Shown: positions 8,773 through 15,043, counted from the first letter of the stretch. The stretch is 55,250 nt of DNA from an uncultured Candidatus Saccharibacteria bacterium (GCA_964361705.1 CAYIBP010000005.1:1-55250); one strand, 5' to 3'. A program made the numbers and translations. Notes: generated by a model from the letters alone, not told the origin.

Positions 8773-10053
8773 TTAGCTCAAAAAATTCTTGTTTCTCAAA
8801 TCTTTGTGATATTTTATAGCAAACCTATGTGCTTCGGAGTTTGCTAGTAATATTTCATGCTCATATTTTTGCGCCAAATTCTTATCACCTAAAATATTTT
8901 TTGGTCTATGTCGTTCGTCTTTTAACACAGCTAAAACTTTTATATCCAAATCCTGTTTTTTAAAAATTTTCTTCGTAGCATTTATTTGAGCCACTCCCCC
9001 ATCTACTATTATAACATCTGGAGTTCGCCATTCACCATGCGCAAATCTTCGTTCTAATACCTCTCTAAGCGCTCCAGTATCGTTCGCATTTTCTTGTGTT
9101 TTTATCTTGAATTTTCTGTATTCATTTTTATTTACATCTCCATCTTCTACTACCACCATAACTCCCACCATATTTTTGCCTCCCATGTGGGCTATGTCAT
9201 AGGCCTCTATGCGGGTAAAAGTTGAGGAGGGCAAAATTTTCATGTCCGAGGGTCCCACTTTGGTCCCTTTAATGCGCCCAAAGAAGGGCGCAGGACTGAA
9301 AATTTTGCCCTCCCCAGCTTTTACCTTTATCAAAGCAATATCGTTGATATGTCCGAGCGCAAATACCTGCCTCTTTATCTCCCCTGCTTTTTCAAACTCA
9401 CGAGCCTTGGCATATATCTGCATTTCTTTTTTTAAATTCTGCAAAATCTTTTTCTTTTTTCCTTCAAAGAATAGTTTGATGTTTTTTATATTTTCCAAAT
9501 ACATTCGTTTATCTTTCAGGTCTGGCACCAATCCTATCTGCCTGTAAAATTCGGCATAATTTTTGCTCTTGTCATCTAAGAACGGAAAAATCTTGCGTAT
9601 CATAGATACTGCGAGCTTGAGTTGTGAGCCATTTGGGTATGGTCCAAAAATTCTACTGAATTTTTGGACCTCTGTTTCTATATCTCTGCCTCTTTTTATA
9701 ATTACTTTCGGTAAATCATCTTTGGTTTCTTTTGTAATACACACAAAATTAAAACTCTTGTCTGATTTTTCTTTTGTATTATATTTCGGCTGATACTTTT
9801 TAATCAGCTCTGCCTCCAATATCAATGCTTCCAACACACTGTCTGTCTGTGTCCATTTGACTGTATCCGCCTTGAAAACCATATCTAAAATCACAGGCCC
9901 ACGAGTATCTATAAGGTCTTTTCCAAAATAGCTTTTCACCCTGTCTCGCAGAGATGTCGCTTTACCGATATATAAAATCTCACTCGCTTTTTTGAAAAAG
10001 TAAACTCCAGGCTTATCAAGAAGTTTTAGTTTTTTGAACTGTTTTAGATTCAT
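8773..10053 (-). CDS. uvrC: Excinuclease ABC subunit C, compact form
   Basis: GIY-YIG (PGVYFF..LYIGKATSLRDRVKSYF), UVR motif (EFEKAGEIK), RNase H-like (RIEAYDIAH, IIVDGGVAQ, EAHRFAI); ends before an HhH domain. Confidence 0.93.
   Translation of the reverse strand: MNLKQFKKLKLLDKPGVYFFKKASEILYIGKATSLRDRVKSYFGKDLIDTRGPVILDMVFKADTVKWTQTDSVLEALILEAELIKKYQPKYNTKEKSDKSFNFVCITKETKDDLPKVIIKRGRDIETEVQKFSRIFGPYPNGSQLKLAVSMIRKIFPFLDDKSKNYAEFYRQIGLVPDLKDKRMYLENIKNIKLFFEGKKKKILQNLKKEMQIYAKAREFEKAGEIKRQVFALGHINDIALIKVKAGEGKIFSPAPFFGRIKGTKVGPSDMKILPSSTFTRIEAYDIAHMGGKNMVGVMVVVEDGDVNKNEYRKFKIKTQENANDTGALREVLERRFAHGEWRTPDVIIVDGGVAQINATKKIFKKQDLDIKVLAVLKDERHRPKNILGDKNLAQKYEHEILLANSEAHRFAIKYHKDLRNKNFLS
9214..9325. 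repeat. Palindromic in-frame insert in uvrC
   Basis: 29-bp arms 9214-9242 / 9297-9325 (27/29 complementary); inner TGCGCCC-AAAGAA-GGGCGCA. Confidence 0.9.
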
Positions 10054-12727: not shown

Positions 12728-15043
12728 TTATAACACATTTTTCACCTTTTCCAAAAGTATCCCAATCTCATCCCGTAATATCGCTGCGGTTTCGAAATCG
12801 AGTTCTTTTACCGCTTTGTTCATTTCTTTTTCTTTTATTTTTATTATTTTATCGTAGACCATTTTATTTCTTTCTTCATCAGAGAGCATTGTGTTTTTTA
12901 TCGAATCAGATTCGTTCTTCTTTTTATTGTCTTTGCTTTTTACAAAAGCTTTTTTGAAAAGCTCTATATCTAGAGTGAGCTCGGCATTCACCGCTTTGGC
13001 GTGTTCGCTTTCGAGCTCTTCGGTAATATCTTTTATATTTTTCATTATCGTCTTCGGAGTAATGCCATGCTTTTTATTGTAAGCAAGCTGGGTATTTCTG
13101 CGACGAGTAGTTTCATCTATGGCACTCTTCATCGAACCTGTAATCCTGTCGGCGTAAAGTATAACTCGGCCTTCGGCATTGCGTGCTGCACGACCGATGG
13201 TCTGTATCAGCGATGTTTCTGAACGCAAAAACCCTTCTTTGTCAGCATCTAAAATACCTATCAATGCGACTTCTGGTAAATCCAAGCCTTCACGCAAAAG
13301 GTTTACTCCGACTAAAACATCAAATTTCCCTTTACGGAATTCTGTCAGGATTTTTATCCTCTCTATTGTTTTTATATCGCTGTGCAAATATTCGGCTTTT
13401 ATTTTTTTATCTTTTAGATATACCGAAAGTTCCTCTGCCATCTTTTTTGTCAGCGTTGTCGCAAGTACACGAAAACCTCTTTTGATAGTGTGTTCTGTTT
13501 CTTTTATAAAATCTTGTATCTGACCTTTGTACTGAGGGCGCGGAGAAGTATGCTTGTAGGAGTCTTCGCTGCGAACAGAATTATCTTGCCCTTCCAAGAC
13601 AGAGTGCGAACGACGGAGAGCATACTTCTCCGCGCCCTCACTCACTGGTCTCACAAATATCTCTGGATCAACCAATCCTGTCGGGCGGATGATTTGTTCT
13701 ACTATCTGCCCGCTTTCTCCTTTTTCTTTCTCCGAAGGTGTGGCACTGGTATATATGACTTGCCCGATTCTTTCTTCAAATTCATCGTATTTCAAAGGCC
13801 TATTATCTTTAGCAGAAGGCAAACGAAAACCATATTCCACAAGTGTTTTTTTGCGAGAAGCATCTCCGGCATACATACCTTGGAGTTGTGGCAATGTGAC
13901 ATGCGATTCATCTATGATGGTCAAGAAATTGGGGAATTCGCGCGATAACTTTCTTTTGAGGGGTGTCTCGCAGGCCGACGGGCCGAGAGGCAGCGCTGGC
14001 GTAGCAACGCCAGACAGCGACCCCGCAAAAGAAGAGTTATCGCGCGAATTCCTTGGAAAATACGACAGCAGTGTCTCCGGTGGCTCGCCTTCCGCTTTTC
14101 CCGAAAGATGTCTGGAATAATTTTCTATACCACTGCAATAGCCGACTTCTTTTATCATTGCCAAGTCATAATTTGTACGTCGTTTTATTCTCTCTGCCTC
14201 CAAAAGCTTTCCCTCTTTCTCAAACTTTTTTAATTGTTTAGTAAGTTCTTTTTTTATTTCTACTAGTGCTTTATTTTTTTTATTTTCTTCCGTTATAAAA
14301 TGTTTCGCCGGAAAGACAAACACACTCTCTTCTTCTTTCAAAACCTTTGAAGACACGGGGTCAACTTTTTTTATAGATACGATCTTTCCATTTTCAATCT
14401 CAATCTGAAAAGAAAAAGTCTCAGACACGGGCATAAATTCTACTCTTCCACCTATGGATCTGAATTGTCCGGGATTCAAATCCGCATTTGTGCGTTCAAA
14501 ATGAATCTCAATAAATCTTTTCAAAAGACTCATCCTGTCTATCTTCATACCAACATTTAATTTTAAATTCACTTTTTCATATTCTTCCGGTGAACCCAAA
14601 CCATAAATACAAGACACTGAAGCGACGATAATAACATCCGGCCTTGTAAGCAAAGCTTGAGTGCTGGCGTGACGTAATCGGTCTATCTCTTTGTTTATCT
14701 GAGCATCTTTTTCTATATAGGTATCTGAGACTGGCATATACGCCTCGGGCTGATAGTAGTCATAATAAGAGACAAAATAATGTACAGCAGAATCTGGGAA
14801 AAATTGACGAAATTCAGAAGCGAGCTGGGCGGCAAGGGTTTTGTTGTGAGCTATCACCAAGGCAGGCTTGCCCCATTTAGCTATGACATTCGCCATGGTA
14901 AAGGTCTTGCCGGTACCTGTAGCGCCGAGCAATGTCTGCTTTTTCATACCTTTTTCCAGACCCTGCAAAAGCTTTGAAATAGCCTGCGGTTGATCGCCGG
15001 CAGGATCAAAATGACTCTTTAATTTGAAATTATTTTTTAACAC
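12728..15043 (-). CDS. uvrB: Excinuclease ABC subunit B with two palindrome-encoded peptide inserts
   Basis: PAGDQPQAI, GATGTGKTFT, YFVSYYDYYQPEAY, DESH, NLLREGLDLPEV, QTIGRAARN, C-terminal UVR domain. Confidence 0.98.
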   Translation of the reverse strand: MLKNNFKLKSHFDPAGDQPQAISKLLQGLEKGMKKQTLLGATGTGKTFTMANVIAKWGKPALVIAHNKTLAAQLASEFRQFFPDSAVHYFVSYYDYYQPEAYMPVSDTYIEKDAQINKEIDRLRHASTQALLTRPDVIIVASVSCIYGLGSPEEYEKVNLKLNVGMKIDRMSLLKRFIEIHFERTNADLNPGQFRSIGGRVEFMPVSETFSFQIEIENGKIVSIKKVDPVSSKVLKEEESVFVFPAKHFITEENKKNKALVEIKKELTKQLKKFEKEGKLLEAERIKRRTNYDLAMIKEVGYCSGIENYSRHLSGKAEGEPPETLLSYFPRNSRDNSSFAGSLSGVATPALPLGPSACETPLKRKLSREFPNFLTIIDESHVTLPQLQGMYAGDASRKKTLVEYGFRLPSAKDNRPLKYDEFEERIGQVIYTSATPSEKEKGESGQIVEQIIRPTGLVDPEIFVRPVSEGAEKYALRRSHSVLEGQDNSVRSEDSYKHTSPRPQYKGQIQDFIKETEHTIKRGFRVLATTLTKKMAEELSVYLKDKKIKAEYLHSDIKTIERIKILTEFRKGKFDVLVGVNLLREGLDLPEVALIGILDADKEGFLRSETSLIQTIGRAARNAEGRVILYADRITGSMKSAIDETTRRRNTQLAYNKKHGITPKTIMKNIKDITEELESEHAKAVNAELTLDIELFKKAFVKSKDNKKKNESDSIKNTMLSDEERNKMVYDKIIKIKEKEMNKAVKELDFETAAILRDEIGILLEKVKNVL
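13533..13640. repeat. Palindromic in-frame insert in uvrB (108 bp)
   Basis: Perfect 22-bp arms TGAGGGCGCGGAGAAGTATGCT (13533-13554) / AGCATACTTCTCCGCGCCCTCA (13619-13640). Confidence 0.93.
13933..14052. repeat. Palindromic in-frame insert in uvrB (120 bp)
   Basis: Perfect 18-bp arms GGAATTCGCGCGATAACT extending to ~31 bp with one bulge and one mismatch; inner GGCC/GGCC and CTGGCGT/ACGCCAG hairpins. Confidence 0.93.

Follow-up and report, generated by a model that had tools for sequence, protein, structure and literature searches.

The closest described counterparts of the inserts reported here are the Rickettsia palindromic elements (RPEs; Ogata et al., in PMC10969869). In the available text of that review, RPEs form palindromic families of ∼100–150 bp in a reduced genome; many of them sit in frame in unrelated housekeeping genes, where they add peptide on being read through, and none encodes its own transposase. 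According to the part of PMC6649704 that treats them, they lose repeat identity over time. Bacterial MITEs, as the available sections of PMC10969869 describe them, are small, non-coding and multi-copy, end in terminal inverted repeats and can fuse in frame with host ORFs. REP and REPIN repeats are hairpins of similar total size to our inserts, with long vertical inheritance, in genomes that carry Y1-type transposase (RAYT) genes (excerpts of PMC3116915, PMC3337134 and PMC3733652). Inverted repeats of translated genes (coding palindromes) are long, near-perfect, and gained and lost between species, their perfection being attributed to conversion or template switching; the available text of PMC6649704 proposes the latter as maintaining perfect coding palindromes. 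Template-switch (quasipalindrome) mutagenesis accounts for stems that are perfect, for compensatory changes made in one step and for inverted copies of neighbouring sequence (PMC7202029 and PMC8794818), and PMC8794818 gives template switching as a source of new hairpins.

We analysed a window of 55,250 nucleotides, the whole stretch of DNA under study, from the 746-kb genome (G000) of an ultra-small groundwater CPR bacterium. Our verdict on three palindromic inserts in its uvrC and uvrB genes, termed E1–E3, is that they belong with the coding palindromes of Rickettsia or with MITEs, as a new variant in CPR bacteria. The comparison with RPEs drawn in a first-pass annotation of the window was borne out, in that these are in-frame non-autonomous repeats with empty sites in relatives and with pairing conserved as DNA. 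The likeness is set by description, not by sequence, and the host phylum differs (CPR here, Alphaproteobacteria for RPEs). A further difference is that here the core alone is conserved, the long outer stem being locus-specific and near-perfect; and neither the flipping of cores nor the arms that copy host flanks, both seen here, are described for RPEs in the available text of PMC10969869 and PMC6649704.

Palindromic inserts in uvrC and uvrB

The genes and inserts are as follows.
8773–10053, minus strand: uvrC, 426 aa, host of E1 (Pfam GIY-YIG and UvrC_RNaseH_dom)
9214–9325, no strand assigned: E1, 112 nt, in frame in the uvrC linker between the GIY-YIG and RNase H-like endonuclease parts
10050–12674, minus strand: uvrA, 874 aa, element-free in the window
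12728–15043, minus strand: uvrB, 771 aa, host of E2 and E3
13533–13640, no strand assigned: E2, 108 nt, in frame at uvrB site B, after VRPVS, adding residues 468–505
13933–14052, no strand assigned: E3, 120 nt, in frame at uvrB site A, between SYFP and FLTIIDESH, adding residues 332–371

Outer arms measure 29 nt in E1 (93% complementary), 22 nt in E2 (100%) and 25 nt in E3 (88%), and smaller hairpins are nested inside each element. GC content is 0.50, 0.54 and 0.60, respectively, versus 0.37 for the genome. Folding z-scores were −7.3 to −11.5 on either strand, with none of 200 shuffles folding as well, and the RNAs are predicted to fold very stably (−57 to −78 kcal/mol). The whole genome holds 13 inverted repeats with arms of at least 20 nt and a spacer of at least 20 nt, versus 0 or 1 in each of 12 local triplet shuffles. 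The in-frame, GC-rich palindromes lie where the first-pass annotation had placed them and are far beyond chance; its remark that the arms of the three elements are mutually unrelated also proved correct. Contigs of three other studies carry E1–E3 unchanged: E1 is intact in one contig from another study, with 0 differences, while two contigs cover E2 and two cover E3.

Compared with the solved UvrB structure 2fdc_A, the uvrB inserts fall between chain residues 331 and 332 (40 aa) and between 427 and 428 (38 aa), with zero native residues lost at either point. Both have pLDDT below 50, in an AlphaFold model of moderate overall confidence (mean pLDDT 69) in which other segments also score low.

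Empty sites at uvrB and uvrC were found in close relatives. Many relatives have nothing at uvrB site A, uvrB site B or the uvrC linker, and others have E1, E2, E3 or another family there; when empty, the uvrC site holds 10–19 aa in some relatives. The tgt gene offers one more such permissive site, empty in some relatives and occupied by different families in others. These permissive sites are loops of conserved proteins that tolerate insertion. Many copies are inherited at orthologous sites, and the arms of orthologous E2 copies differ in sequence yet are perfect.

Further host sites were seen in tgt, TsaD and UvrD, and a relative's uvrA (locus L174, the gene being named by flanking residues that match the UvrA of the window) carries an E2-family copy in frame. 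Distinct host genes total 12, six of which serve DNA repair (UvrA, UvrB, UvrC, UvrD, RecG and PolA).

Conserved cores and locus-specific stems

Each element consists of a structured core belonging to a sequence family and a long, locus-specific outer stem. The cores map as follows.
∼9230–9309: conserved core plus inner arms of E1, enclosed by locus-specific outer arms
∼13552–13622: conserved core of E2
13961–14023, plus strand: E3 core, a 63-nt three-way junction with a closing stem, a GGCC-GACG-GGCC hairpin and a variable 5-bp stem with an AGCA loop

The E3 core recurs in this genome at C8:6414–6479 (identical) and C1:44948–45010 (98%), with unrelated arms at each. Within the genus it matches 37 of 61 genomes, near full length in 32 of them, and the E1 and E2 core families each occur in 18 of the 61. 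An E3 covariance model matches 23 of 121 genomes sampled over the order, patchily across families. The same 63-nt core occupies at least eight different genes or sites, and its length is exactly 63 nt in all 52 copies. Copies of the E3 core share a GACG tetraloop and those of the E2 core share CGACGG or TGACGG; neither motif stands at the foot of a REP-like stem. The view that the elements share architecture and not sequence thus failed for the cores, only the outer arms being free. By the same token, the proposal of structure-defined, non-autonomous elements held for the non-autonomous, in-frame repeats and not for definition by structure alone.

Pairing in the E3 core is conserved as DNA and not as peptide. 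In the alignment 95.6% of cells are paired versus 79% after shuffling, a level reached by none of 500 shuffles, and double-change cells number 257 versus 78 in shuffles. Compensatory changes occur at 17 of 30 pairs, with covariation scored at 0.45, versus 0.14 for shuffled alignments and 0.06–0.11 with partners slid. Conservation of the core is the same across the three codon phases (0.94–0.98), and in 91 pairs at the UvrD site identity averages 0.86 within the core and 0.51 at the third codon positions of its flanks. The three E3 cores of G000 share a genome-specific stem variant although their arms are unrelated, which would require gene conversion confined to the core, or else that the core moves by itself.

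At one and the same orthologous site, the E3 core is found in both orientations. Forward and reverse counts were 1 and 5 at tgt, 4 and 2 at TsaD, and 6 and 8 at UvrD site 1; in young copies of the genome G120, the core is flipped relative to asymmetric 5-nt ends.

The two arms differ in what they take from the host gene. By hand inspection of ∼30 alleles, the downstream arm includes native PDFL, YPGQIQ or PALF codons in at least 10, and the upstream arm never contains native codons. Species-specific synonymous differences in one arm are mirrored in the other. Native codons in the downstream arm, mirrored by the upstream arm, point to maintenance of the stem by template switching. Flank copying may be the work of one replication strand. 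In the outer E3 stem, a hand count from the pairing table gave 34 G-T and 9 A-C mispairs on one strand; this excess hints at folding of one strand.

A copy burst and a proposed mechanism

G120 contains 12 near-identical E3 copies, mostly between genes, with shared 28-nt arms (∼10 copies show the same arms). Among the eight copies with recognizable ends, four have exact flanking direct repeats of 9–14 nt and a fifth has a ∼10-nt direct repeat with one mismatch (7 nt exact), as in a recent, MITE-like burst. A copy at uvrB site A (L153) is flanked by an 8-of-9 repeat of YFP codons, and no clear target-site duplication was seen at E1, E2 or E3 in the window.

In most genomes (G000, the genus, G079), unlike in MITEs, termini vary between copies and the hairpin tip is the conserved part, so an end-recognizing transposase is hard to reconcile with the elements. 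Also unlike in MITEs, the flanking repeats, seen in G120, vary in length (9–14 nt) and no related full-length IS was found. For G079, 12 copies were reported, and the seven examined all differ in their arms; six of these are intergenic and one is within a short open frame. Turnover of the arms thus does not depend on coding sequence, and has to be either rapid or part of insertion.

Searches with DDE_Tnp_1, rve and Transposase_mut gave no match in G120, G079, G012 and G129, draft genomes 94–99% complete with 5–12 E3 copies each. The G120 arm pattern was found in G120 only in small copies (19 matches, as pairs ∼97 nt apart or single copy arms), and no related full-length autonomous IS with the same ends was found there.

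We think it probable that E1–E3 belong to small non-autonomous hairpin repeats of CPR bacteria, RPE- or MITE-like in kind, and are copies that lie in frame and are translated; each has a core and a free, self-complementary stem. The mobile unit would be the core plus stem, inserted with target-site duplication by machinery that these searches did not find. Once inserted, the stem would be kept perfect during replication by fold-back template switching or by conversion between the arms; the same process would allow the stem to lengthen, as the downstream flank is copied, and the core to flip between the inverted arms. Insertions would survive only if they give a harmless disordered loop of ∼36–40 aa in one reading frame, and nucleotide excision repair (NER) genes may tolerate inserts partly through relaxed selection on NER in this group.

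More tentatively, and with considerable doubt, we raise the possibility that these form a class of mobile CPR hairpins not described before. Such a class would be recognized by its three-way-junction tip and not by its termini; the stem would be sequence-free, self-correcting and growing by copying the downstream flank, the tip would flip in place, and there would be a preference for proteins that process hairpin or branched DNA (UvrA, B, C, D, RecG, PolA). By flipping in place, the tip could let one gene encode two alternative loop peptides, and lodging in these six proteins suggests an interplay of the elements with repair, or even dependence on it for movement. The conserved tip, the free and perfect stem, the upstream arm mirroring host codons and the flipping core are together hard to fit to end-recognizing transposition, and this anatomy points to structure-recognizing machinery or replication-based propagation.

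If the hairpin-repeat interpretation is true, coding palindromes are not peculiar to Rickettsia. They would be a recurrent survival route for selfish hairpin DNA where genomes are reduced and very gene-dense, and would supply core proteins with new surface loops. The elements are also a natural setting in which to study template switching and the maintenance of palindromes. On the practical side, metagenome contigs break at these inserts, protein lengths come out inflated, and the annotation and alignment of CPR marker genes can be misled.

Competing explanations and intergenic look-alikes

The first-pass annotation had suggested, as an example, mobilization by a RAYT/HUH-type or other nuclease encoded elsewhere, and the genome does encode candidates: seven Y1_Tnp ORFs above the Pfam cut-off, of 207–275 aa. 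For the three of these seven that were scanned, the best NCBIfam match was the REP-associated tyrosine transposase (REP_Tyr_transpos), at 36–70 bits, under the curated cut-off of 80. Several Y1 genes of G000 are flanked by repeats of their own, and E1–E3 have a REPIN-like size and hairpin shape (as described in parts of PMC3116915 and PMC3337134); with the mispair excess that hints at folding of one strand, this would fit REP- or REPIN-type elements moved as single-stranded hairpins. The Y1 genes do not track the elements, however. Their flanks have no sequence in common with E1–E3, none lies within 1.5 kb of any of 32 E3 loci, and only 2 of 56 E1 and E2 loci have one within that distance, ∼1 kb away. 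Y1 genes and E3 do not co-occur (rho 0.16, p 0.23), and six genomes carry E3 copies without a Y1 match, including G012 and G013 (five copies each); G079 (12 copies), G129 and G148 likewise have E3 copies and no Y1 match. REPs, in the available descriptions, are extragenic with conserved arms, whereas the E1–E3 families lie mostly in genes (in the genus) and have variable arms. The G120 copies also have flanking direct repeats. Such repeats are not expected from HUH transposition. We therefore hold this explanation to be rather unlikely.

It is decidedly unlikely, in our view, that the elements are structured DNA or RNA kept by selection for host benefit (supercoiling, control of replication or recombination, mRNA stability, translation pausing) and not selfish. 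Host function could be another meaning of the strong core conservation, which extends beyond synonymous sites over long divergence, with covariation. Inheritance of many copies at orthologous sites, the empty transposase search and the DNA-repair functions of half of the host genes go the same way. Against it, sites are empty in many close relatives and families replace one another at one site; either orientation is accepted at a single site; occurrence is patchy over the families of the order (23 of 121 genomes); and the G120 burst, with its direct repeats, is mostly between genes. A search of the window at Rfam gathering scores matched no family. A below-threshold Rfam scan of the three E3-core loci of G000, the first of which also covers E2, gave only chance-level matches.

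Hairpins made on the spot by template switching in replication, with no mobile element, would explain the inverted copies of the local downstream flank and the maintenance of perfect arms, and have precedent in the published attributions of coding palindromes and new hairpins (PMC6649704 and PMC8794818, in part). As in coding palindromes, one arm can be native coding sequence here. Those palindromes, though, lack a conserved mobile core and have both arms encoding conserved protein, whereas here most of each element is an insertion with a family-specific core; and quasipalindrome mutagenesis is a mutational process and not an element, leaving shared cores unexplained. The cores are not local in origin, as the same one recurs across sites and genomes; they are GC-rich against a 37% background, and the 12 G120 copies have the same arms and direct repeats. 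For the cores this very improbable explanation is already contradicted, and template switching remains as a mechanism for stems only.

Our preferred reading, that of translated hairpin repeats, is consistent with the frames in which copies lie. Long ORFs contain 32 of 35 E3 copies, the other three lying between genes, upstream of a gene, and at a contig end in a partial tgt frame. For E2 the figure is 21 of 23, two having no long ORF, and 20 copies share one orientation. Frame is intact and free of stops in every in-gene copy seen, and E3 uses a single frame per orientation across its at least eight sites; judged from sequence, in-gene copies are thus probably translated and not spliced. Removal of the hairpins from the transcript, or their bypass, had also been suggested; the bypassing elements of Magnusiomyces mitochondria (cited in PMC6649704) would be the precedent, and the very stable predicted RNA structures could speak for it. 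It is hardly credible, as two thirds of insertions would be expected to shift the frame if untranslated, an RNA-recognition mechanism would not tolerate both orientations in mRNA, and no intron or ribozyme family matched in the Rfam searches above.

Self-splicing introns, ribozymes and inteins found no support either: the window has no Rfam match at gathering score, the frame is intact and both orientations occur. Inserts of 36–40 aa are too short for an intein.

Similar structures had been annotated between genes at four places in the window. Three hold and the fourth is weak.
849–977, no strand assigned: intergenic palindrome, 26-nt arms (88% complementary) enclosing GC-rich hairpins, z −4.9
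1759–1899: intergenic look-alike, z −6.5
22567–22716: weak intergenic look-alike, z −2.7
32883–33014, no strand assigned: intergenic hairpin of a different repeat family, z −4.7, core ∼32915–32989

No second copy of the 849–977 palindrome was found in this genome. The core of 32883–33014 is 96% identical to C2:59668–59742 and 92% identical to C13:2618–2692, with differing outer stems.

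Three palindromes and their core families

The palindromes, E1 in uvrC and E2 and E3 in uvrB, lie exactly where the first-pass annotation had placed them. Their genome, G000, totals 746 kb in 19 contigs at 37% GC; contig C5 is the window.

Elements and host genes in the window
8773-10053, minus strand: uvrC, 426 aa, with Pfam GIY-YIG and UvrC_RNaseH_dom
9214-9325: E1, arms of 29 nt, 93% complementary
10050-12674, minus strand: uvrA
12728-15043, minus strand: uvrB, 771 aa
13533-13640: E2, arms of 22 nt, 100% complementary
13933-14052: E3, arms of 25 nt, 88% complementary

Each folds as a long stem around two small hairpins, with z-scores of -7.3 to -11.5 on both strands. 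Inverted repeats with arms of at least 20 nt and a spacer of at least 20 nt number 13 in all of G000, and 0 or 1 in each of twelve local triplet shuffles. The elements recur without change in contigs from three other studies and are thus no assembly artefact. No joint skipping an element was seen in those contigs, which are blind to rare variants. Relative to a solved UvrB (2fdc_A), the two uvrB inserts fall between consecutive residues, 331/332 and 427/428. The palindromes themselves are confirmed, and the interpretation first offered for them is supported in part.

Independent public-run contigs begin or stop inside all three elements near their centers (9278-9280, 13591-13614 and 13990-13992), perhaps because assemblers break at hairpins, perhaps because variants exist there. 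Two further hairpins, at 5199-5245 and 25249-25298, have perfect 17–19-nt stems with terminal T runs and lie 3' of genes; both resemble typical intrinsic terminators rather than members of the element families. UvrC has a GIY-YIG domain and an RNase H-like endonuclease domain, and at an E-value cutoff of 1e-5 Pfam gave no match to a C-terminal helix-hairpin-helix region; UvrC proteins of relatives are similarly 400–480 aa long.

The elements had been thought to share architecture rather than sequence. This holds among E1, E2 and E3 themselves, but each has sequence relatives elsewhere. C8:6414-6479, in frame inside a TGT gene, repeats the inner 66 nt of E3 without a mismatch, and intergenic C1:44948-45010 is 98% identical to the inner part of E3. 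The outer stems of these two copies are perfect, ∼28 nt long and each of different sequence. The E2 core is matched at 85% by C2:70063-70130. Among 61 genomes of the genus, a tally that includes the unpublished genome G072 although none of the conclusions depends on it, core matches were found in 37 for E3 (32 near full length) and in 18 each for E1 and E2. With a covariance model built on the E3 core plus its inner stem, matches were obtained in 23 of 121 genomes sampled order-wide, almost all of different families. The cores of G000 have genome-specific stem variants in common, as do those of G012, which implies within-genome spread or core-limited conversion.

Insertion sites and reading frame

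Three sites recur: uvrB site A (E3 in the window), between SYFP and DFLTIIDESH; uvrB site B (E2), between VRPVS and Y-x-GQIQDF; and the uvrC linker, between HINDIALIK and RIEAYDIAH. The search for empty sites that had been proposed was productive, as all three are empty in many genomes of the same genus and in the majority of the order's other families. In other relatives they hold cores of the E1, E2 or E3 type, or members of additional families. E2-type cores use uvrB site B in six species and site A in four, and are hosted also by TGT, UvrC, UvrA, PolA, RecG and a carbamoyl-phosphate synthase. E3-type cores occur in UvrB, TGT, TsaD, UvrD (two sites), a KsgA-type methylase, peptide deformylase and one unnamed protein.

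Six of the 12 distinct host genes of the E2 and E3 families encode DNA-repair or replication proteins (UvrA, UvrB, UvrC, UvrD, RecG and PolA), in a small and non-independent sample (loci L039, L151, L170, L174 and others). This fraction is far above the coding-length share of such genes, even without uvrB and uvrC, the genes that revealed the families, giving an apparent bias toward DNA-repair genes. Searches for UvrB and/or UvrC came up empty in several relatives (G005, G008, G009, G016, G025, G034, G036, G038, G049 and G052), among them genomes that are 96–100% complete (G008, G016, G025 and G034). Nucleotide excision repair thus seems dispensable in this group, and the uvr genes may tolerate inserts for that reason.

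At these positions other families of the order have in-frame hairpins of their own: locus L019 at uvrB site B of G020, and loci L081 and L085 at the uvrC linker. One is a 52-aa insert folding at -89 kcal/mol; others are perfect, short (∼30 nt) and GC-rich.

Removal or bypass of the hairpins at the RNA level had been suggested. A long open reading frame continues through 32 of 35 E3-family copies, the other three being intergenic, upstream of a gene, and at a contig end in a partial tgt frame. The same is true of 21 of 23 E2-family copies, and no frame interruption was seen among the copies examined in either family. E3 moreover uses a single reading frame per orientation across all of its sites, at least eight. 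Kept frames and one frame per orientation make removal or bypass very unlikely; judged from these frames, the elements are probably translated. AlphaFold2 modeling of UvrB (mean pLDDT 69) places both inserts among the segments with pLDDT below 50, mostly as coil.

Core constraint, orientation and mirrored stems

The E3 core is exactly 63 nt long in 52 of 52 copies, and its consensus is a three-way junction with compensatory changes at 17 of 30 pairs. Pairing holds in 95.6% of cells, vs 79% in shuffles. Double-change cells number 257 vs 78 in shuffles, a level reached by none of 500, and vs 32–54 in a slid-partner control. At the orthologous UvrD site, mean identity over 91 pairs is 0.86 for the core vs 0.51 for flanking third codon positions, and the core is conserved equally across the three codon phases. 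Together these observations indicate constraint on DNA or RNA rather than on peptide. Conservation as peptide instead of paired nucleic acid, which would have told against an element, is therefore not what we observed. At gathering score Rfam matched only a tRNA in the window, and at E up to 1, over three G000 loci with the E3 core (the first spanning E2 also, with E1 outside the scan), it gave only sub-threshold, chance-level matches to miRNA precursors and CPEB3.

Orientation of the E3 core varies between species at one and the same orthologous site. Forward and reverse copies number 1 and 5 at the TGT site, 4 and 2 at the TsaD site (one of these six from unpublished G072), and 6 and 8 at UvrD site 1. 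Species with opposite core orientations have homologous arms in common, and near-identical copies in G120, a genome from another family, have the core inverted relative to asymmetric 5-nt ends. The simplest reading is inversion of the core between inverted arms. By contrast, E2 orientation is 20 to 1 one way.

The arms follow the host. Scoring by hand from an ungapped repeat table, we found native conserved codons within the downstream arm in at least 10 of ∼30 alleles, and never within the upstream arm. Examples are PDFL at uvrB site A (two families), YPGQIQ at uvrB site B and PALF in TGT (two families); in each such case the upstream arm is the inverted complement of the downstream native codons. 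Synonymous differences between species in these codons are matched by corresponding changes in the upstream arm, so the stems stay matched to host sequence. The pattern is consistent with fold-back template switching or with arm-to-arm conversion, an explanation already put forward for nematomorph coding palindromes (PMC6649704). The one-sidedness of the copying may reflect a strand-specific event during replication. An automated measure of hairpin extent into native codons was abandoned as too noisy, giving spurious pairings between anchors at empty sites.

Signs of movement and candidate enzymes

G120 holds 12 copies scoring as high as those of G000 itself; about 10 have the same 28-nt arms and are mostly intergenic. 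Among the eight with recognizable ends, four have exact direct repeats of 9–14 nt on either side and a fifth has a ∼10-nt repeat with one mismatch, these repeats sitting ∼5 nt from the element ends. The pattern resembles a MITE burst accompanied by target-site duplication. Two G120 copies (L196 in C7 and L197 in C16) have an extra ∼30-nt GC-rich hairpin inside the core, which may be nesting or a variant junction arm. G079 also has 12 copies by count. The seven examined, six intergenic and one in a short open frame, have different arms, evidence that arm turnover is general.

Mobilization by a RAYT/HUH-type nuclease had been proposed. G000 does contain seven Y1_Tnp ORFs, with sub-threshold similarity to RAYT.

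Y1_Tnp ORFs (IS200/RAYT-like) in G000
C1:80162-80836
C1:122003-122626
C6:852-1679
C8:13098-13766
C13:4545-5285
C13:19812-20486
C14:854-1495

These form two groups, with within-group identities of 52–57% and 33–53%, and four of the seven have direct or inverted repeats of their own on their flanks, a layout reminiscent of mobile units or REPtron-like loci.

The Y1 genes, though present, neither adjoin nor track the elements. A Y1_Tnp gene lies beside none of 32 E3 loci and two of 56 E1 and E2 loci. Co-occurrence with E3 gave rho 0.16 (p 0.23), a descriptive value only since related genomes are non-independent. Six genomes have E3 copies without a Y1 match, and none was found in G079, G129 or G148. 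G120, G079, G012 and G129 gave no match to DDE_Tnp_1, rve or Transposase_mut, and in G120 the arm sequence is confined to the small copies. Every genome in these comparisons is a draft. G000 had no match to reverse transcriptase (PF00078) or the TnpB/Cas12f domain (PF07282).

The literature on Patescibacteria/CPR palindromic elements, MITEs, RAYTs and REPINs, as far as covered, held no description of such elements. The closest systems are Rickettsia palindromic elements, MITEs, REP/REPIN-RAYT systems and nematomorph coding palindromes. Those of Rickettsia, as described in PMC10969869, are similar in being in-frame, translated, family-forming palindromes. The present elements differ in a conserved tip on a free yet perfect stem, and also in flank-mirroring arms, apparent in-place flipping and host phylum.
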